Positions 3,848 to 38,588 of a stretch of 64,000 nucleotides of DNA are shown piece by piece. Location of the stretch: the NCBI GenBank assembly GCA_000004695.1, contig CM000155.2:192001-256000 (forward strand), in the 5' to 3' direction. Position 1 is the stretch's first letter. The number at the start of each line of letters is the position of its first letter. Below the pieces are notes generated by a model. The model was not told the DNA's origin and did no database searches. It saw only the letters and a program-made list of their open reading frames with translations. Source of the DNA: Dictyostelium discoideum (Eukaryota). The translations under genes were made by a program, and so were the position numbers.

Positions 3848-4011
3848 CTTCTCAAAATTATTATTTTTGATATTATATTTGCAATTAATAACTGACCAAC
3901 CAAAATCAACAAGTGTGTGATGGGGGTCAAAAAATTTGTTAGAATTTATCAAAATTATTATTATTATTAAATATTATTTAACTTGTGTGGTCTCCCCAAA
4001 TAATTTAACTT

Positions 4012-22263: not shown

Positions 22264-25200
22264 TTAATACCAACTACACCAACCAACATACATATTACAT
22301 AAATGTTTTGGATTAGTAGCTTCTTGAATTAAATGATTAACTTGACCTTCAATTGAAAGTTGTAAACCAACTGTTGGAATGCCTTGTAATGTTGCACTAA
22401 TTCTTTTTAAAATTTCAACTGCTTGATCATTTTCAACTTCACCAAAATGAGTATTATTATTATTATTAGAGTTTTGATTTTTCTTGTCAAATAATATAAG
22501 AAAAGGATCATAGATAAAGTTTTCCAAAACACGAAGTAAAACCTCTTTATTTGATCTAAGAACTCTTAATGTATTTTCACAAACTGTTTTGAATGTACCT
22601 TCAACACCTAAAACTCCGAAAACATCTACCATATTACGAGTTAAACGGAATGGTACTCTCTCTGGAACAGTAAAAGTTTCACCTTTCCAAAACAAGCAAT
22701 TGTAATCGATATGAACACATTCACCAGTAATTGAATCCAATAGAATATTTTCAGTATGACGATCACCCAAACCCAATACACTACCAACCATTGACATGAT
22801 GGCACAAGATCGAGCAAATGCATCTCTTGCATCTAACCAAGCAGAAGGCTCAGGGAAATTTGTAATGAAATGTTTATGTAGTACTGGTGGGAAGAATCTA
22901 TTGAAATCTTCAAAGAGATCTAGATAATGTTTCTCCTTTTTAGCGTTTACCATTTGATTAAATCTATCGATGCCTATAGTATCCATAGTTTCATAAATAC
23001 CACCAAGAATGGAACGTAAGGTGGCAGTATTTGAAACCCATTCAATGATACCACTCTCTTCGTTGAATGGAATTACAGTGTAAGTTCTAATCTTTAGATT
23101 ACGTTTTCTACAAGCTGGATCCTTCTTTATGAGCTTATTGACCATTGTATTGAATTCCATAACACGTTGATCTTTTCTAAGGTCATCATTTGGTTTGAGG
23201 AGGAAACTGTATCTATTACCTTGACGATCGTTAACATTGATTTTCTTTGGGCCTTGAAGGGATGGCATAATATCGATTTGATCTTCGAATGAACCAATCA
23301 AAGGTAATGAACCAAATGCTGGATAGGATTTATCAGGTTTACCATTTGGTGGTAAACTAACATTTAAAGAGGATTGAAGTGGTAAGATAACGGTTAGATC
23401 TTTCATTTCATAGAGTTTCTTAAAGATTTCAGACATTTTTATACTATATCTTTTATTGGCTTTCTTTGGATGATTTGAAACTGCGAGCAATTGTGCACAC
23501 AATAGAATGGTTTCATCTTGATTCTTTTTGATTGCATCAGTTTTTCTGGCTTTTTCTAAACAAGTACGTGCTCTTTGTTTTCTAATGGATGAACTGGAAC
23601 GATATTGCATCATCATGATCCAAATCGATTGTTTTGGAAACTCTATCATTGTCCTTATAATGATTTTTTCCAATATTAACCATGTATCAGTGTTTTTATG
23701 ACAGATTCTTGAGGCAACCTGTGATAAAAACATTAACCAATTTGAGGCAGGTACATCCAACTCTAGTTTTGACATTGCTTTCTTTATGGATTCCAATGAA
23801 TCAGAGGTAACTTTTGTTGATTTCTCTGGAATTTTAAAATCACTAAATATTACACCAAGTTCACACCATAATGCTATAATTCTAGTTAATGTTTGATAAA
23901 TATAAGAATGGCCTAATATAACCGCTTGACCATAGGATGAAATGATATTTCTAGTATAATCGACATAGGAAACACTATCTAATGGAGGTGAATTTGGTGA
24001 ATTTTGATTAACCCTCTTAAGATTTGATAAAAGTGAATCATAATATCTACCTAGGAAAAAGAAACCTTTCTCCCATTCAAAAGCTGTTGCACTTGAATAA
24101 TGTTCAGTTAGCTCTGAATGATGAGTAATACCACATTGTTGTTTCCATCTTGCAATTAATAAATGAGTTTTTGAAATTATAAATAAATCTTCTTGTGGTA
24201 AACCTAATAATGATAATTTACTACCATTATTAATATTAATATTACTACTACTATTATTACTACTGTTATTATTACTATTAATTATTGGATTCCATTTATT
24301 TTTTAATTCTTGAGTTAAAATATTAATTGCTTCAAAACTATGACCTTGATTCCACATTAATTTTGCATGTTCAATGAAATAGAATTTATCTTGTTGTGAT
24401 GGTGTTGGTTTTAAAATTGCATTTAAAGAGAGTTCAAACTTTTTATCATGTCTTGCATACTTTCCAATTTTCATCCAACAATCAATAACTTCTTTCGAGA
24501 ATGAACCAATCTCTAAGATCTCTCTACGAACACTAAGAATACTTTCTCTAAGTTTAAATGATGGTTGAATAATTTTTAATCTATCATCCCATTCAGATAA
24601 TAATTTCTTTAACATTTGTTGTTTTTGAACATTATTATTATTACTATTGTTATTATTACCAATATTATTATTATTATTTGTAATTGTAACATTTTCAATT
24701 GGAATTACATTATAATGAATTAATTTATAACTTTGTTCAATTTCTTCAAGGATATGTGCTTGAATTAAGTAAGGATAACATCTTTGATAAGAATCTAAAG
24801 CTGAACCATTTAAAAGTTGAGCTAAAAATGATCTACATTGGAATAGGTTTGAATTAAATTCTTTTTCTTGTTTTTTAACCAATGAATATAAAATTCTACC
24901 CAAATATGCTTCAAAATTTGGTTCATGTGTTTGAGATAATGTTTCATCAATTTTATCCCAATGTGATAATCTCCAAGATGATTGAATTTTAATGGTACCA
25001 AGTTTAGATTGATCTTTATTAGTTAACCATGGTTCTTGTTTTAAACCTTCAATTTGAAGTAATAATGATTCATGTTGACCTAAATTGAATAGACAATTGA
25101 GTGCTCCAATTCTAAGATCCATATTAATTGGTGATCTTTCCAATGCAGTATTATAATAAAGTAATGCATCACCCCAAAATCCTTGACTTTCCAATTCAAC

Positions 25201-25386
25201 TATCTTTTCTTCATTCGATGGTGAACCAACTCTCTTATGAGATAAACCTATTAAACCATCAATATCATCCATTTCATGATAAATCTTTTGTAATAATTGT
25301 AAATTATTATTTAATGCTAATTCTCTAGCACTTGCCATTGAAGCTGGTTGTGATGAATTTAATATTGGAATTTGTTGTTGTTGAAC

Positions 25387-25429
<43 letters not shown>

Positions 25430-27848
25430 GGTTGTTGTTGTTGAAGTTGTTGTTGATATTGTAAATTTTGTTGTTGCATATTTAATTGTAGATTTAATTG
25501 ATGTTGTTGTTGTTGTTGTTTTAATATTTGACTAGTTTCATTTCTAATTAATGATTCCATATAACTTAATGATGTAGATAATGCACCACATCTATAGGAA
25601 GCAAAAGCTAAAATTTTCTCTGGAATACCATTTAAGAAACGTTCAATTACGACAACATCTGGTGGAGATTCCAACTTTTTTGATTTTCCTTTTTGAGAGG
25701 CTGTTCTTTGTTGTTGAGTTAGAAAATATTTTCTCTTTCTAACATCGATCCAATTGTTTAGACTATTGATTACATGAAAAATGATTTGAGTACAAATTTG
25801 ACCATTATCAGTACTAAGATCTGTATTATTATTTAATACCTCTAAAATTTCATTCTTTATTGATTGAATATCACTCTCTCTACCATATTCAATGATATTT
25901 AAAATTACCAATGGTAAAAGATAATGACAAATCTTTAAATCATCCTTTATAATACCACGACATGCCATAAATATTGAATCTAAATCATTATTTGCTGAAC
26001 CTGGTGAACCTTTAGTTTTAAATAATAAATCAGATAACCAACTTGTTATCCATTTTTTATAAGTCATATTTGAACCATAAAAACATGATGATGAACCAGA
26101 TGAACTAACACCATTACCACCACCATTACCATTACCACCACCACCACCAACTAAATTATTATTCTTTTTTGAAAATAAAGGTAACATATATTCTGAAGAA
26201 TAATATGGTTTAATTATATCATTACATTCATTTGATAATTTCTCTGATAATTTTGTATCTTGACAACATTTTAAAATCTCTTGAATTGCATAACCTGCTC
26301 TATCTTGTGGAGTTGGATTACTTGGTGAAAGAACAAACTTTGCTAAATATTTCTCAATTAATTCTGCAGCGATTTGAACTTTATCCTTTTCAGCGGTTGA
26401 TTGATTTCTAAGACTAAAATCTAATTTCACAGGATCAATTGCACCCAATTCACCAAGACATGTTAAGAAATTTACACTTAACTTTAAGTATGGATCTCTA
26501 CAACCAATTAATAAAGATTTAACCAAATCATTTATTAAAATTGGATCAGAATCTAATTGAATCATTTCATGAATTATAGATTTATTGGCTGATAATAATT
26601 CTTTTAATTTATTGGTTGACATAAGTTTAACTTCAATCGATTCATTTGAGAATAATTCCATCAATTGTTTAATTTGAGTAGTTAAATTTGCTGAACTAGA
26701 TTCTAACTCTTGAATGTAAGGTTTTAAGACTGTATATTCCTTTGGTAGGAAAGGAATAGTTTTAAAATAAGGTTTTAAAATAGTACGATTCTTTATAATT
26801 AAATAATCGAAAATTAATAAAGATTTCTCTGGATATGATTGTACAAATGGTAAAATTGAGAATACAATTTGATTTAATATTGGACCAATACTATCTAATT
26901 TTAATAATTGAATAAAAGTAAACCAAGCATCGATTGCAATCTCCTCCATTGGCGTTTTAATTGCTAATCTTAAGAATGCCATAATCTTTGGTCTGAATAA
27001 ATCCACAGATTGACCCATTAAACCCAATAAACGATGAAAACTGGTCATCATTGTTAACTTTTCTTGAGTACTCTTTTGTTTATTTGTCATTATCATGGTA
27101 AAGAAATTCATTGATCCTAAAAATTCCTTAATTAAGAATTTGTCAAATGTCATATCACCACCAACGAATTGACTAACATAATCTAAAGCTTTCTTTGCTT
27201 GTTGACCATCACCATTGGCCAAATTCAATATAAGCGAATTGATAAATGATTTTGGTAAATTTGAAACCACTGCATCTTGATTGAAATCTGCAAAACGACA
27301 AAAGCATATAATGCAACTTGTTAAATTCTCCACACTGGTAGCATGAATGAAAATATATTCAAATATTAATCCCATTAAATAATCTTGACCACAAAGTTCT
27401 TTTAAATCTTTTAATTCATCTTTTAAACAATTTAAAATATTATTTGAACTCTTGAAAATTAATACTGGTATAACAGTTGGTAAAGATGAAATTAAAAATT
27501 GATTCAACCCTATCCCTAAAAAGTATCTACATAATTCCACCAATGATTGTCTATTTGTATAAAGATTTTCAATAATTCTTGGATTTATATATTGTGCCAT
27601 ATTTGTCATCATTAAAGTTTTTGGTGTTTGATTTAATTTCTTTGCAATAAATTCAATGGTTTCAATTGAATTAACTTTAATTGTTGTTTGTCTTGATAAA
27701 TTTTCAATTAAAGTACAAAATATAATTAAAATAAAATCATTTGAATAAATTTTATCTTGCCATGTTATTGAATCATTATTTGTTGTCGTTGTATTATTAT
27801 TATTTAGTTGATTATTATGTGATGAACTTGAAGATGATAATTGTTGAA

Positions 27849-27882
<34 letters not shown>

Positions 27883-28707
27883 TAATGAATTATTTAAAAT
27901 ATATTGATCTTTTTGTGATTGAATTATTAAATTTGCAATTTTTTTTAATAAATATAAAATTGAAAATAAAATATCCTCCCTTTCACTTTTATTTGAATAA
28001 AGTGGATGTAATTGATAAAAGAAATTTGTTAAAACATCTGGATTAGTTTGATAATTAAATTTTAACATTGAAATTATAATCTTTATAACTGATTTTCTAA
28101 TGATATCATTTCTATTTGCCGATAAAAGATTTAAATAAAATTTAAAGAAACCTTCAATCGATGTTGATGGTAATGGTGAATTATGAATTAAAATATTTTT
28201 AAATGTGAATCCCAAATAAAAATATTTTATCGAAGAATCATGATCACCATCACCACCACCACTAGTCATCATTGAAGTATCATTATCCAAATCGGAATTT
28301 TGACCGTCATGATATTCCAAAAATAATTTTGAAAATAAAATATTCTCTTTATATTTTGATTCTAAAATTAAAATTTGTTCATTATTATTCGTTTTATCAA
28401 TATCCATTATTGTTTCATCTTTTTCATTATTATTATTATTATTGTTTGATGGTGGTGATTTATGAATTGGTCTATAAGGTTTTAAATTTAAATCAACAAT
28501 ATTTGTATTTAATACTGATGAAACTGTAACACATTTACAAGAACATAATGGTAACCAAACACCTTCAAAAATACCACAACCAACTAAATTATTATAATTT
28601 GATAGTAATGGGTCGATTTTAATTCTATTATTTTTAGTATCAGTAAATCTTTGGAGCAGAATAGAGTTATTTATTATTATAAGGTTATTTTGTTCTTGAA
28701 TATTATT

Positions 28708-28752
<45 letters not shown>

Positions 28753-29270
28753 ATTGTTGTTGTTATTGTTTAAGTAAGTACATCTATTTAGATTCTCAAA
28801 GAAACAATAACCTTCCTTCAAACAATATAAACTACCACCAATTACACCAACCATATCTAAAATTAAACTTGTAACATTTAAATCTATTATTGACTCTAAT
28901 CTCTTTATAATGTCATTACACATGATTTGATATTGATGATTGGTTGAAATGGTTGCTAAAGAATTAACTGGTGACATATTTGAAATGAATACTGGCAATA
29001 ATTTTATAACATTAATTAAATAATTTTGATCTAATTTTGATAAATATTTTTCGCCCTTATTATTATTATTATTATTACGTTGTTGTTGTTGACTAGCACT
29101 TATAGCTTGTGAATCACCCATTGAAGATGATGTATCACTTGATATATTAACTAAAATCGGACTACTTGATACGATAGTTGGATTATTTTTATTTGATTCA
29201 CCAACATTTTGTTGACTTGAACTTTTATCTGTTGTTGTAGCTGTAGTTGTTGTTGTGTTTGTAGTAGCAG

Positions 29271-29323
<53 letters not shown>

Positions 29324-29895
29324 GAGTTCACCAATGATTTATTTAATGATAAAGTTGATAAAACAATATCAACTCTTTCATTAACATAATATGAGCATGG
29401 TAACCAACAAACTAAAGAGAAAGAGATCACTTTAATTGAATTAATTATTTCAGCATACTTTGTTAAATTAAATATTGTTGAATGATTTGTTACGATTGTT
29501 GATAATTTAAATAATGATTCTAATAATTGTTCATTTGATTTTAATGTTGAAATTCTATGTAAATATTCAATCTCTACAGTACTTGATAATTTTAATAAAT
29601 CCATTAAAACCTCTAAAAATAAATTATCAAGTTCTTTTTGCTATAATTGAATAATTATTAAAAATTAATATGAAATAAATATATTTATAAAAAAAAAAAA
29701 AAAAGTGGTAGGGATATTATTTTAAAAAAAAAACACTTACTTGAATTATTAAATCATAAATAAAATTTAAATTATTTATGAATAAATTAACTAATTCTTT
29801 TACTGAAACTCTATTATGATGATTTTTACAAATTTTAAAAATGAGATGAAGTGCTTTTAAATAAATTCTAATTGATTTTTGTTGTTCTATTGTTG

Positions 29896-29927
<32 letters not shown>

Positions 29928-32083
29928 GAATCTTCTGTAATACTTTTTTGATTTTCAATTTGTTTATTATTAACATTTTCACTAGTACCACCAGCACCAC
30001 CATCACCATCATCTTTTTCAATATTTTCAGTATTATTATCTATATTCTTATCCTTTACTGAATTTGTAACTGTTGATATACTTTCATAAATATTTGAAAT
30101 ATTTAAACAATTTGAATAATCAATTAATGTATTTAAAATCTCTAATGATATATCAATATCAGTATCATCATCATCATCATCAGTATCAATTAAATAGGAT
30201 TGATTAATAACATAATCAAAACATTGATATAATTTATCATGAATACCTTCATCACCAAATAAAGGTACTAAATTATAAATAGATTTAAATTGTAATTCTG
30301 ATAATTTTAATATATTTAAATAAATATCTAAAATTGAAACCTATTATTTTAATATTTTAATTATAATTATTAGTAATTGATTAAATAATTTTTAAAAAGA
30401 AATAAAAAATAATATATATATATATATATATATATATTACCTTTAATTCTGTTAAATTTGTATTATTAATAATAAATAAAATATTTGGTAAAATGATTGA
30501 AGAGAAATCAAATAATGTTGAACTTGGTACATTTGAAAATAATAATGGTATGATTGAGGTTAATTTTATGTCAATCTCTTCCCTTCTCTTTGAACAATCC
30601 TTATCATTGAGTAACATACTCATTGGTAATAAAACATTAAAAAATTGACCAACAATATTATTATATAATAATGCAGGTATTTGATTTGATGATAATTTTA
30701 ATAATTTTTCAAATAAAACTAATAAAGACTAAAATATTGAAAAATTAGTATATGCTTTAATAATAAAGTAGTTTAATTAATACATACATAAATAAAATTT
30801 GCCATATATTTAAATGAAGAAAGTTTTAAATCATTTAATAAAAATAGATATTGTGATAAAACATCCCAAAGGTCAATTGATACTGAATATAAAATTGGTG
30901 AAAAATTATCAATGACACTACTAATCGATACTAATAAACCATATTGAAGATTAATTAAACGATTAATAGATGATATTACAATAATAACACCTTCATCAAT
31001 TGATTTACTATTATCATCATTACTATTACTCTTTTCTTTTTCAATATTCTTATCTTTTTCACTATTATTATTATTATTATTATTATTGTTGTTATTTTTA
31101 GAATATTGATTAAATGCCATTTCAGTTTGTACTAATAAATCTAAAGATTGATAATGTTTTGAATAACTACTTGTATTACCTGTTGTATTTGAATTTATAA
31201 TTACTGAACTCGATAATTCACAATATGTTTTTAATACCATTGGAAATATTGATTTTTCTTGTTCTTGTTGATTATTACTACTATTTAAACATTTAATAAA
31301 ATCAATGCAATCTATATATATATATATATAAAATAAATATATTTTAGTACGATATAATTGGTAATGAAAACATAACTATTATATAATGTTTAATTTACCT
31401 TTAAATAAACAAATTGTTTCTTTAAAAAATAATAATAAAACATTTGCATCATCATTTAAGAAGTTTAACATTGCTTTTATTGCAGTGATTAAATTCTCTG
31501 TAAATTCTTCATTCTCATCCAATTGTTGATGTTGTTGACTACAAATGTTTGTTGATGATTTATGTGAGAGAAAAGGTATCAATTTGAATAAGAAAAAGCA
31601 AATATCACCACTACTATCGCCAATTGCTAAACTACTATTTGGAATTTTCTCAATTAAATAACTAATTAATTTTACAATTTGATTTATATCACTTATACTT
31701 GCAGTTGATACTAAATGTGAATTTATTAATTCTGGTAATATTGATCTAATTCGTGATATATATAATTCATATTTTTGTTGTATTTTATGTGTAGTTTTAT
31801 TTTGTTGTTGTTGTTGTTTATTATTATTTGTGACTGATGTTGTGTCTAAATCTTTTTTATTATTTTTATCATCTACTATTGAATCTTTACTTAAATTGAT
31901 TGGATGATTTTGTGAATTATATTCATTACCACCTAATTGTTGAATTTCAATAATTAGGCTTACTAAATTTGAAATGAGTGATTCTTTCTCATTTTGTTCT
32001 TTTTCTTGTCTTTCTCTTTCTAATTGTTGTTGATATTGTTGTTGTTGTTGTCGTTGTTGTTCTTGAAATTGCTCACTAGGCAT
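22264..32083 (-). CDS. atr1: ATR/Mec1/Rad3-type PIKK checkpoint kinase, about 3156 aa: complement(join(22264..29640,29740..30336,30441..30728,30788..31311,31399..32083))
   Basis: The C-terminal exon carries the PI3K-like kinase ([11 protein letters not shown]...HIDYNCLF...DFG) and the FATC tail ...[13 protein letters not shown], which matches the ATR tail ...LCQMYIGWCPFW, with FAT/UME-like helical repeats upstream. Upstream exons were rebuilt from donors GTAAGTG, GTAATATATAT, GTATGTATT and GTAAATT and acceptors ttatag, aataatag, tattttag and tatatatag, with all phases and exon lengths consistent. ATG at 32081-32083 ([15 protein letters not shown]...). The internal exon 29740..30336 has no ATG/TTG, which explains its absence from the ORF track. 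Confidence 0.85.
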
Positions 32084-32491: not shown

Positions 32492-33088
32492 CTAAGAGAG
32501 TACAAAAATTTTTAAAAGGGCTAATAATGTTGCAAATAATAAACCTAGTAAAGATTTTTTAGAATTTTGATTTCTATCTATATCATTTGACATTGAAGAA
32601 GATGATGATAAAACTCTAATTGAACCAAGCATTGTTTGATTATGATATTTACAATGATACGTGTAAATACCTTCACGAGTGAAAGTTACTGAATGTTTAC
32701 TTTTTGTATAAGAATCTTTTGAAAATGTTGATGAATTTATAATTTGAAAATATTTATTATTACTATTAGTATAATAATTTAAATTTGCATTATTATTTAT
32801 CTCTTTACTATTAATTTGGTTCATCAATATCTCTTCTTTATTAACTATATCAATTGATCTAATTGATGTAACTGTATGTTGTAATCCATCTGTAGTTATC
32901 CATGTTACTGTGACGTGTGTATATATAGAATTAGTAATTTTATACATATATCAAAAATAATAATAATAATAATAATAATAAATTACCTTGATCACCAACA
33001 GATATTGTTATTTCTGATTCAATTGGGTTATCCCATTTTATAACTATATCACCTACAATATTTATATGTATAAATAAATTAATAACTA

Positions 33089-33123
<35 letters not shown>

Positions 33124-33239
33124 TAATTAAAATAATATTATTTTCTATACATTGAATTAAATTTATAAATATAAAAAATATAATCAAAAGATATAAAATT
33201 CTGCGTTTAAAAAATTTCCCGCCATTTTGATTTGATGAC
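32492..33239 (-). CDS. Secreted GPI-anchored type-1 blue-copper (cupredoxin/plastocyanin-like) protein, about 190 aa: complement(join(32492..32907,32985..33050,33149..33239))
   Basis: Exon 1 is a signal peptide, MSSNQNGGKFFKRRILYLLIIFFIFINLIQ(C), ending at donor T|GTATAG. Exon 2 follows a ttgtag acceptor: DIVIKWDNPIESEITISVGDQ(V), ending at donor G|GTAATT. Exon 3 follows a tcacag acceptor: TWITTDGLQHTVTS...FTREGIYTYHCKYHNQTMLGSIRV plus a Ser-rich stretch and hydrophobic C-terminus (GPI signal). Copper-ligand spacing His...Cys-x2-His-x3-Met is present. Confidence 0.7.
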
Positions 33240-34724: not shown

Positions 34725-36889
<2,165 letters not shown>

Positions 36890-36957: not shown

Positions 36958-37174
36958 CTAAATATAGGCATAATTGCATTTAAACGAAAAATAATTAAAC
37001 GTTTAATTTTATTTTTTTATTTTTAATTTTATTTTTATTTTTTATTTTTCATTTTTTTTTTTTTTTGTGAAAATTTTTTTTATTTTTTTTTTTCTTTGTA
37101 AATACTTTTTTTTTTTTTTTTTTACTTTTATTTTTTTTAATTTTTTTTTTATTTTTTTAATAAAGAATATAAGA

Positions 37175-37567
37175 ATGTATAATAATAATAGAATTAATCA
37201 ATTTCAACAACAACAACAACAACAACAACAGCAACAACAACAAACACAATATAATACTCAATACTATGGACAATATCAACAACAAGGCCATATGATGGGT
37301 GGACATATGCAACAACATATGCAACATCCAAACCAATTTCAACAACATCATCTTCATCAACAACAAATGAGTATGATGGGTCATATGCCACAACAACAAC
37401 AACAACAACAATATGGTAGAGGATTTCCTCAACAAATGCAACAAATGCAACAACAACAACAAATGCAACAACAGCAACAACAGCAACAACAACAACAATC
37501 TGATAGGTTTGTATATTTATATTTTCATAATCTTAAGATTAACTCTATTATTTCACTCTTTTACTAA

Positions 37568-37604
<37 letters not shown>

Positions 37605-38588
37605 TTAATAAACCACCCAATAGTGATTTATCATTATATATAGGAGATTTAGCTACAGATGTAACAGATCAACAATTAATGAATGCATTTCAAGGTAGAT
37701 ATCCATCAGTTAGAAGTGCAAGGGTAATTATGGATAGTGCAACAGGTATATCAAGAGGATATGGTTTTGTAAAATTTGCAAGTGATGTTGAAAAAGATAA
37801 AGCACTCATTGATATGAATGGTTTCTATATAAATAATAAACCAATTAAAGTAAATAATCCAACTCATAAAAGATTAAATAGTCAAACCTCAACAATACCT
37901 GATTTAACTTCAACCGATCCAAATAATACTGCAATTTATGTTTCACAATTAGATCATTATATTGATGAAGGTGTTTTACAAACGTATTGTATATTTAAAA
38001 AAAAAAATACACAAAAGGGTATACTACTAATATTTAATTTTTTTTATAATTTTTTTTAGTATTTTTGGAGCATATGGTGAAATATCATATATTAAAATGT
38101 TAACAAATAAGTTTAGTGCATTTGTTAATTTTGTAAATAGAGAATCAGCAGAAGCTGCATTTGGTTTAAATAATTTTCCAGTTGGTAATACACGTTTAAA
38201 GGTTCAATGGGGTAAAAATGTTGCTCCACCACCAAAATCACCACCAATGACACCAACTAATATTGCTGTTAACATTAATACACCTCCAATATTTTCAACA
38301 AATATATCTTCAACGTCATCACCCTCTTCACATAGTGTTGTTGTAGTTAGTAGTAGTGGTGGTGGTGGTGGTGGTGGTGGTGGTGGTGGTACAATTAATT
38401 TCAATGAAACTTCAATTAACAATAACAACAACAACAATGATGGTAATATAAATAATAGTAATATAAATAATAATAGTAATATAAATAACAATAATAATGT
38501 TAATAATAATAATAATAATAAACCGAATGGAGTTTCAATTAATAATGATAAAAACAATTCAAGTATTTACGATCCACACTATACATAG
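37175..38588 (+). CDS. TIA1/TIAR/PUB1-like RNA-binding protein (poly-Q N-terminus plus two RRMs plus Gly/Asn-rich tail): join(37175..37506,37624..37983,38060..38588)
   Basis: Exon 1 reads MYNNNRINQFQQQQQ...SD plus AG at a GTTTGT donor. Exon 2 follows a cccaatag acceptor: SDLSLYIGDLATDVTDQQLMNAFQGRYPSVRSARVIMDSATGISRGYGFVKFASDVEKDKALIDMNGFYINNKPIKVN, which is RRM with RNP1 RGYGFVKF and aligns to TIA1 RRM2; donor AC|GTATTG. Exon 3 follows a tttttttag acceptor: (T)IFGAYGEISYIKMLTNKFSAFVNFVNRESAEAAFGLNNFPVGNTRLKVQWGKN, which aligns to TIA1 RRM3 (...KCYWGKE). The poly-T-derived N-terminal Met of ORF 37067 was rejected; the true ATG is at 37175. Confidence 0.8.

Follow-up and report, generated by a model that had tools for sequence, protein, structure and literature searches.

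Cupredoxins of the PF00127 type, which include amicyanin, plastocyanin, pseudoazurin and the Nitrosopumilus cupredoxin, are type-1 copper proteins of bacteria, archaea and plastids and act essentially as periplasmic or thylakoid electron carriers. Ephrin-A ligands are metazoan proteins anchored by glycosylphosphatidylinositol (GPI), with a cupredoxin-like receptor-binding domain that holds no copper. Plant phytocyanins are defined partly by two disulfide-bridged Cys residues, and the family, including the ENODLs, mixes members with and without copper ligands (PMC4499708). We describe here a gene that compares with all three groups, DDB_G0291382, a small three-exon gene on the minus strand (33241-32492) of a 64,000-nucleotide (nt) stretch of Dictyostelium discoideum DNA (assembly GCA_000004695.1, contig CM000155.2, positions 192,001 to 256,000), which we refer to as the window and whose numbering is used throughout. 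The explanation that best accounts for the observations as a whole, to which we assign a probability of about 0.5, is that its product is a secreted surface cupredoxin for which copper binding is plausible in the D. discoideum complex (four species), and that the role common to its family is not that of a blue-copper protein.

A PF00127-type cupredoxin

The 190-residue product has a sole Pfam match, to PF00127 (Copper-bind), over residues 43-151 (E 9.7e-7; 29.6 bits against a gathering cut-off of 21.2 bits). Of the two Pfam families that the original prediction had named as checks this is the one that matches; the other, Cu_bind_like (PF02298), does not match the protein even at E≤10. There are sub-threshold NCBIfam matches to amicyanin, pseudoazurin and plastocyanin, and among PDB sequences the single protein finds amicyanin at 1.6e-5. 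A profile built from 13 family sequences finds amicyanin (3e-12), the Nitrosopumilus cupredoxin (2e-10), plastocyanin (1e-7) and pseudoazurin (1e-3) in the same collection, with no phytocyanin or ephrin chain matched at E≤10. AlphaFold modelling with a 4-sequence alignment was unusable, with a predicted local distance difference test (pLDDT) score of 44, and was replaced by a 41-sequence alignment of the domain, which gives a pLDDT of 71.9 overall and 77-88 in a beta-core of seven strands. The top 50 Foldseek matches of this model in the PDB consist entirely of amicyanin, plastocyanin, pseudoazurin and Nitrosopumilus cupredoxin structures. Pfam, the PDB profile matches and the structural model thus all bear out the predicted cupredoxin fold, a Greek-key beta-sandwich, and assignment to the bacterial/plastid PF00127 type (amicyanin, plastocyanin, pseudoazurin) is solid. 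The cupredoxin domain comprises residues 32-152 (32609..33050, minus strand, as are all features of the gene described below), and its first strands carry a conserved family motif, W-[DN]-x-P...[IV]-x-[VM]-G-D. Met145, Gly147, Trp55, Phe128, Gly132, Tyr136 and Val151 are invariant in the family and His63 is nearly so.

Judged by its aligned residues, the type-1 site of the D. discoideum protein is complete. The motif YTYHCKYHNQTM occupies residues 134-145, and the His...Cys-x2-His-x3-Met arrangement that had been noticed at first sight is present as His63 (CAT, 32878-32876; the N-terminal ligand position, near-invariant in the family), Cys138 (TGT, 32653-32651; the Cys ligand position), His141 (CAT, 32644-32642; the second His position) and Met145 (ATG, 32632-32630; the axial position, invariant in the family). 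The first three align to His53, Cys92 and His95 of amicyanin, and Met145 follows Cys138 by seven residues. In an hmmalign alignment of related prokaryote-type domains, the matching four columns read His, Cys, His and Met (H/C/H/M) in 354 of 379 (93%).

There are several departures from the PF00127 electron carriers. The Dictyostelium protein is nuclear-encoded, with a predicted eukaryotic signal peptide and spliceosomal introns, and it adds a low-complexity insertion of ~45 residues, a Ser-rich stalk and a GPI-like C-terminal signal. The insertion is Asn/Lys-rich, lies at about residues 74-120 (32705..32845) between the His63 strand and the C-terminal strands, and differs in length between species; residues 93-107 within it are predicted to be disordered (pLDDT below 50). 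The ligand loop has the spacing Cys-x2-His-x3-Met, against x2 in amicyanin and x4 in plastocyanin. No periplasmic or thylakoid redox partner applies to the Dictyostelium protein, and its orthologues, unlike the carriers, have lost ligands. The nearest relatives outside the Amoebozoa are all bacterial or archaeal, so that horizontal transfer from prokaryotes is a plausible origin, on which we make no claim.

The protein was originally described as having the architecture of plant phytocyanins. The likeness lies in layout, the phytocyanin plan of signal peptide, cupredoxin-fold domain, spacer and GPI signal being matched in outline by the predicted features of the Dictyostelium protein, and in the mixing of copper-ligand and copper-less members. 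As a statement of kinship the comparison fails. The domain is PF00127 and not PF02298, the phytocyanin disulfide pair is absent (Cys138 is the only Cys of the mature protein), the phytocyanin ligand loop is longer than the Cys-x2-His loop of Dictyostelium, and phytocyanins score below amicyanin and plastocyanin both by sequence and by fold. The spacers also differ, that of phytocyanins being glycosylated and Ser/Pro-rich and that of Dictyostelium rich in Ser but not an arabinogalactan glycomodule. Homology to phytocyanins, either through ancestry shared with stellacyanin, uclacyanin and ENODLs or through transfer from plants, is therefore very improbable and effectively refuted, and the common layout is best read as convergence and not as membership. 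A disulfide between Cys138 and Cys31 was also considered and rejected, because D. dimigraforme has Gly in place of Cys31, which coincides with the predicted cleavage site of the signal peptide. As for ephrin-A, no sequence relationship is detectable, Eph-type receptors are absent, and the full ligand set of the D. discoideum protein is a further difference.

Gene model, selection and predicted surface signals

The coding sequence assembled from the window DNA is 573 nt in three exons and is in frame throughout (product MSSNQNGGKFFKRRILYLLIIFFIFINLIQCDIVIKWDNPIESEITISVGDQVTWITTDGLQHTVTSIRSIDIVNKEEILMNQINSKEINNNANLNYYTNSNNKYFQIINSSTFSKDSYTKSKHSVTFTREGIYTYHCKYHNQTMLGSIRVLSSSSSMSNDIDRNQNSKKSLLGLLFATLLALLKIFVLS). 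Exon 1 (33241-33151; 91 nt) begins with the ATG at 33241-33239, encodes M1-Q30 and the first base of codon 31, and ends in phase 1. Intron 1 (33150-33053; 98 nt, GTATAG...TGTAG, 7% GC) falls at the boundary between signal peptide and domain. Exon 2 (33052-32987; 66 nt, phase 1 to 1) encodes C31-Q52 and the first base of codon 53, with the first beta-strands DIVIKWDNPIESEITISVGDQ, and intron 2 (32986-32908; 79 nt, GTAATT...CACAG, 15% GC), which contains an ATG at 32947, splits the cupredoxin domain. Exon 3 (32907-32492; 416 nt including the TAG stop at 32494-32492) encodes the remainder of the domain, the stalk and the tail. The three-exon model with first exons of 91 and 66 nt and a 190-residue product, as first proposed, agrees with both the window DNA and the exons of orthologues; of the boundaries originally given, 32907 and 32492 are right, and 33239, 33149/33050 and 32985 are each 2 nt too low.

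Reconstruction of the orthologous loci shows both phase-1 introns to be shared by D. cf. discoideum, D. citrinum and D. dimigraforme, in all of which exon 1 is also annotated. In D. firmibasis (L003 2001-2662) intron 1 is precisely absent and intron 2 is kept; the genome there reads ...CAAT/GTGATATAG..., the very junction predicted between exons 1 and 2, and this supports the gene model. A phase-1 intron at the boundary between signal peptide and domain is also found in Polysphondylium violaceum, Cavenderia and Acytostelium. A 1049-nt contig from the Joint Genome Institute (JGI; L009), which codes for a close relative of the P. violaceum protein, has no intron across the P. violaceum intron site and is either a transcript or an intron-less relative. 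Towards the 3' end, where the tail is encoded, Tieghemostelium lacteum and Cavenderia have a different phase-1 intron (after nt 451 and nt 757, respectively). This small gene shows a high turnover of introns.

In a DNA alignment of five Dictyostelium genomes the exons are near-identical, and the introns and flanks are scrambled and cannot be aligned. The ratio of nonsynonymous to synonymous substitution (dN/dS; Nei-Gojobori, Dictyostelium pairs) is 0.07-0.16 for the coding sequence and 0.04-0.07 for the domain, with dS of 0.25-0.40 and 25-30 synonymous differences per pair. From this contrast between exons and introns and from dN/dS, the gene is real and under strong purifying selection. A spurious open reading frame (ORF) or a decaying pseudogene in AT-rich DNA is hardly credible: the weak AX4 intron 1 donor (GTATAG) could be taken to point that way, but the dN/dS range, a frame that is intact in nine Dictyostelium assemblies, syntenic orthologues in four genera and homologues in the Physarum and Ceratiomyxa transcriptomes stand against it, and we consider it refuted by the selection and synteny data.

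Inspection of the sequence and a heuristic based on hydropathy recover the originally proposed outline, in which a putative signal peptide is followed by the domain, a Ser-rich stalk and a hydrophobic tail. The exon 1 N-terminus has KFFKRR, a hydrophobic region (h-region) ILYLLIIFFIFI and then NLIQC; its signal-like features are four K/R residues, an h-region of 12 residues (Kyte-Doolittle hydropathy 3.4) and a candidate cleavage site NLIQC/D with Ile at -3 and Cys at -1, where orthologues have Gly or Ala. All full-length members of the family have a hydrophobic h-region that leads to Cys, Gly or Ala, a small residue placed 2-5 residues before the first strand [IV]-x-W-[ND]-x-P, and all have a Ser-rich polar stretch that leads to a hydrophobic segment of 17-20 residues with zero or one trailing residue. 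Dictyostelia, Physarum and Ceratiomyxa alike keep this signal-like N-terminus, stalk and tail. In D. discoideum the stalk is residues 153-171 (32552..32608; SSSSSMSNDIDRNQNSKKS), which include the candidate omega-site region and a Ser run at 153-157, and the tail is residues 172-190 (32495..32551; LLGLLFATLLALLKIFVLS), reaching the last residue of the protein. The sequence VLSSSSS is conserved in Dictyostelium, P. violaceum and the sequences P0003 and P0013. An N-x-T sequon within SNITISVGD, conserved in the dictyostelids outside Dictyostelium, fits passage through the secretory pathway.

Exon 1 would thus direct the 190-residue protein into the endoplasmic reticulum, with cleavage near Cys31/Asp32. 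Residues ~172-190 would then be exchanged for a GPI anchor or, less likely, remain as a membrane anchor, and a short, Ser-rich and probably O-glycosylated stalk would hold the domain at the outer surface of the cell. GPI anchoring is the likely, predicted outcome. An unlikely alternative is that the C-terminal helix (residues 167-189 in the AlphaFold model) is a transmembrane anchor without a cytoplasmic tail, or that the segment is non-functional and the protein simply secreted. GPI signals and transmembrane helices are easily confused (PMC10084454), and the preference at omega+2, a rule from mammalian cells, is for Gly or Ala and then Ser (PMC2119539). Other dictyostelids mostly have [NS]-S-S-K-[QR] just before the tail, which fits small residues at omega and omega+2; in D. 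discoideum the corresponding sequence is N-Q-N-S-K-K, the Ser-x-Ser candidates (153-157) precede the tail by 15-19 residues, and no ideal omega/omega+2 pair lies at the usual distance of about 9-12 residues from the hydrophobic segment. The window allele, which is that of AX4, moreover has Lys185-Ile186 within the tail (32507-32512) where other Dictyostelium sequences have Ile-Phe. Against a transmembrane or secreted form, the hydrophobic segment runs to the last residue, or to the one before it, throughout the family (the window allele, with Lys185 inside it, is the exception), and a polar stretch of small residues before the tail is the classic GPI layout and is atypical of a stable type-I anchor.

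The window allele differs from its relatives in two other places. Gly174 (32543-32545) is Ser in all other sequences except that of D. discoideum P0011, and the h-region is one Phe shorter than in all others except P0011 and the 188-residue D. citrinum P0009. The tail and h-region differences could be strain-specific changes that weaken the anchor signal.

Ligand states and function across the family

Family members were gathered by exhaustive profile search and cluster look-up. With the family alignment as query, a second search added nothing from the dictyostelids and yielded only two additional myxogastrid-like fragments and numerous prokaryotic PF00127 proteins. A search for a D. purpureum or Heterostelium orthologue by way of the CorA neighbour gave a single EukProt protein that is not placed on a contig. 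The ligand states fall into several groups, given here in the order of positions 63, 138, 141 and 145. The four species of the D. discoideum complex have H/C/H/M. Polysphondylium violaceum with its JGI relative and T. lacteum have H/C/N/M, Acytostelium subglobosum and the EukProt sequence P0013 have H/D/N/M, and Cavenderia fasciculata has N/S/N/M. Physarum polycephalum and three environmental relatives (P0055, P0161 and P0162) have H/S/N/M; a fourth environmental Physarum-type relative (P0123) has H/S/K/M, and Ceratiomyxa fruticulosa and a relative have H/S/K/M or H/S/S/M. Cys138 is thus found only in Dictyostelium, Polysphondylium and Tieghemostelium, with Ser or Asp elsewhere, and His141 only in the D. 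discoideum complex, with Asn (AAT or AAC) in other dictyostelids and Physarum. The description 'blue-copper protein' is weakened by this distribution: all four ligands are present in the D. discoideum complex only, and the orthologues in other dictyostelids and in myxogastrids, although they keep the fold, the signal-like N-terminus and the tail, are without one to three of them. By their ligands, the proteins of Cavenderia, Acytostelium, Physarum and Ceratiomyxa belong with the copper-less cupredoxin-like proteins, and the D. discoideum protein does not.

The ligand loop of the D. discoideum complex also contains a conserved N-Q-T sequon, Asn142-Gln-Thr144 (32633-32641), directly after His141. 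The other dictyostelids have Pro-x-Thr/Ser, Pro-x-x or Ala-Asp-Glu at residues 142-144, with which no sequon is possible.

Two further observations concern individual relatives. The dictyostelid sequence P0013 (EukProt 'gene4864-6062_t', 770 residues), which groups with Acytostelium, has the cupredoxin fused to an upstream helical-repeat protein of ~620 residues, most likely through a merged gene prediction. Among prokaryotic PF00127 relatives, degenerate ligands occur in two-domain proteins (P0201 and P0215) and in Bacteroidota proteins sorted by the type IX secretion system (P0237 and P0266), the sets being H/S/Q/M with H/D/N/M, or K/N/N/M; prokaryotes, too, therefore show decay of the copper site in this fold.

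The accepted relationships among the species are reproduced by a neighbour-joining tree (82 columns, 200 bootstraps). Cys138 is confined in it to one clade, made up of Dictyostelium, Polysphondylium and Tieghemostelium (100% support), within which the D. discoideum complex (100%) is nested; the myxogastrid-like and Ceratiomyxa groups each have 100% support. At position 141, ancestral Asn requires a single AAT-to-CAT change against at least three parallel His-to-Asn changes, and at position 138 parsimony is ambiguous, with two steps if Ser is ancestral and three if Cys is. Sampling in this ligand-state tree is limited, as it was made without D. purpureum and other deeper group-4 species. The deeper, prokaryote-type ancestor presumably had H/C/H/M, and from this and the parsimony on the tree it appears that at least His141 was lost and later regained through the AAT-to-CAT change. 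His141, and possibly Cys138, were probably gained secondarily on the Dictyostelium lineage. A more far-reaching version, which we hold only tentatively and consider rather unlikely, is that the eumycetozoan ancestor was copper-less (Asn141 and possibly Ser138), like plant ENODLs, and that a blue-copper site was rebuilt, with Cys138 regained before Tieghemostelium, Polysphondylium and Dictyostelium diverged, and His141 later, in the D. discoideum complex, to yield a functional type-1 centre on a GPI-anchored surface protein.

What these states mean for function differs between the family and the D. discoideum complex. With Asn141 and with Ser or Asp at 138 in the majority of its members, the family (Dictyostelia, Myxogastria and Ceratiomyxa) cannot rely as a whole on a blue-copper site, and whichever reading is right for D. 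discoideum, blue-copper electron transfer cannot be the conserved family function. The ancestral conserved role was probably non-redox, in surface binding or structure. For the D. discoideum protein itself we lean, by a small degree, towards copper being bound at His63, Cys138, His141 and Met145. Sites with a complete canonical ligand set normally bind copper, and the predicted site is favoured because the scaffold around the set is 30% identical to copper-binding relatives, because Cys138 is the lone free thiol of the mature protein and is conserved in three genera, and because His63 and Met145 are kept almost throughout the family. Within the D. discoideum complex the domain would then most likely hold one copper ion in a type-1-like site and serve as a copper-holding or one-electron carrier module at the surface; the role of surface one-electron shuttle or copper holder follows by analogy with PF00127 proteins.

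Several points weigh against this explanation, in addition to the features of the D. discoideum anchor signal noted above (the N-Q-N-S-K-K sequence with its distant Ser-x-Ser candidates, and Lys185-Ile186). The ligand set is not conserved among orthologues, and the four species with His141 are 91-99% identical, so that conservation of this residue weighs little. The N-Q-T sequon adjoins His141 at the surface patch through which electrons normally pass in cupredoxins. A redox partner outside the cell is not evident. The neighbouring genes, for an ATR kinase, a CorA transporter and an RRM protein, are unrelated and give no functional clue, and no paper on the gene or its accessions was found in the literature searched.

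The decay of ligands in orthologues and the position of the sequon on the electron-transfer face are also what would be expected if the protein is a copper-free, glycosylated and lipid-anchored binding, adhesion or matrix module, analogous to ENODLs and ephrin-A, in which the copper site was lost before the eumycetozoan radiation. His141 would then be a neutral Asn-to-His change, and Cys138 would have some other use, such as an intermolecular disulfide. We regard this as a serious alternative, with a probability of roughly a third, but as less probable than copper binding. His63 and Met145 are invariant, or nearly so, also in members whose residues at 138 and 141 are altered, and it is unusual for an extracellular domain to keep a single conserved free Cys that has no function. 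The canonical set in D. discoideum is complete, is spaced as in copper-binding relatives and is of the kind kept in 93% of prokaryote-type domains. The preferred explanation is accordingly still that of a surface cupredoxin whose family role is not blue-copper and which plausibly binds copper in the D. discoideum complex.

Annotation, neighbours and significance

The locus was identified, in the closest database cluster, as D. discoideum DDB_G0291382 (XP_635177.1, UniProt Q54ER3), a single-copy gene; by sequence identity to XP_635177.1 the window gene is equivalent to the public AX4 call. That reference model (151 residues) is the single ORF 32947-32492, which starts at the ATG inside intron 2 and reads through the intron 2 acceptor, with the result that it has 13 spurious N-terminal residues (MYKITNSIYTHVT) and is missing exons 1 and 2; its C-terminal 138 residues are identical to those of the 190-residue product. 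It is without the predicted signal peptide and the first three beta-strands, and the protein would for this reason be missed by secretome and GPI-ome screens. The Acytostelium subglobosum model XP_012753628.1 (138 residues) is likewise truncated at the 5' end. An unannotated upstream exon there (L007 3794-3887; 94 nt, phase 1) is followed by an intron of 102 nt (3888-3989), joins at 3990 and encodes MASSQSNLIHTLVLSQLIIILLLITPSYTTN, a predicted signal peptide, which restores one to the truncated model. The remark that automatic finders easily miss such small 5' exons is thus true of both reference models. Annotations from 2024-25 of other D. discoideum strains, D. citrinum, D. dimigraforme and D. 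firmibasis have products of 188-191 residues that match the three-exon model, and the exact 190-residue sequence was not found in the protein collection searched. UniProt already names Q54ER3 automatically as 'Blue (type 1) copper domain-containing protein'; the domain assignment is therefore already known, and the full gene model is already present in the newer sister-strain annotations.

Divergent from the cupredoxin gene is a gene for a CorA-type Mg2+ transporter (34725-36889, plus strand), in two ORFs (34725-36203 and 36476-36889) split by an apparent intron. A divergent CorA neighbour is common to the window, D. firmibasis, P. violaceum and Acytostelium, making the gene pair syntenic from Dictyostelium to Acytostelium, and a PUNUT/SLC35F neighbour is common to P. 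violaceum and T. lacteum; orthology is thus backed by synteny. Directly downstream is a gene for an ATR-type PI3K-related kinase (22264-32083, minus strand), with an ORF of 2446 residues containing FAT, HEAT_ATR, PI3_PI4_kinase and FATC domains. The ORFs 30773-31240 and 31379-32083 are probably its 5' exons, given that orthologous models are 3100-3220 residues long. Beyond the CorA gene are a Gln-rich ORF (37067-37567, plus strand) and, following it, a gene for an RRM-domain protein (37679-38588, plus strand) in two ORFs, with a Pfam RRM_1 match and the RNP1-like sequence RGYGFVKF.

Were the protein to be copper-free, the finding would shrink to an ordinary annotation correction; the 5' end of the AX4 model of DDB_G0291382 needs correcting in any event, and the Acytostelium model has the same fault. 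In the literature searched, two aspects appear to be new. The first is a eumycetozoan-wide family of probably surface-anchored PF00127 cupredoxins, a nuclear-encoded, cell-surface version of these proteins in Dictyostelia, Myxogastria and Ceratiomyxa, which converges on the layout of phytocyanins/ENODLs and ephrin-A. The second is the confinement of the full ligand set to the D. discoideum complex, where it looks secondarily completed. With H/S/N/M, H/D/N/M, H/C/N/M and H/C/H/M all represented in orthologous, syntenic genes, the family offers a tractable setting for the decay or origin of a type-1 site, and if the site was indeed rebuilt it would constitute a natural stepwise series of loss and regain of a metal site, with living intermediates in H/S/N/M, H/C/N/M and H/C/H/M. 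The genetics of D. discoideum could address whether copper is relevant to surface cupredoxins, a question shared with the plant phytocyanins.

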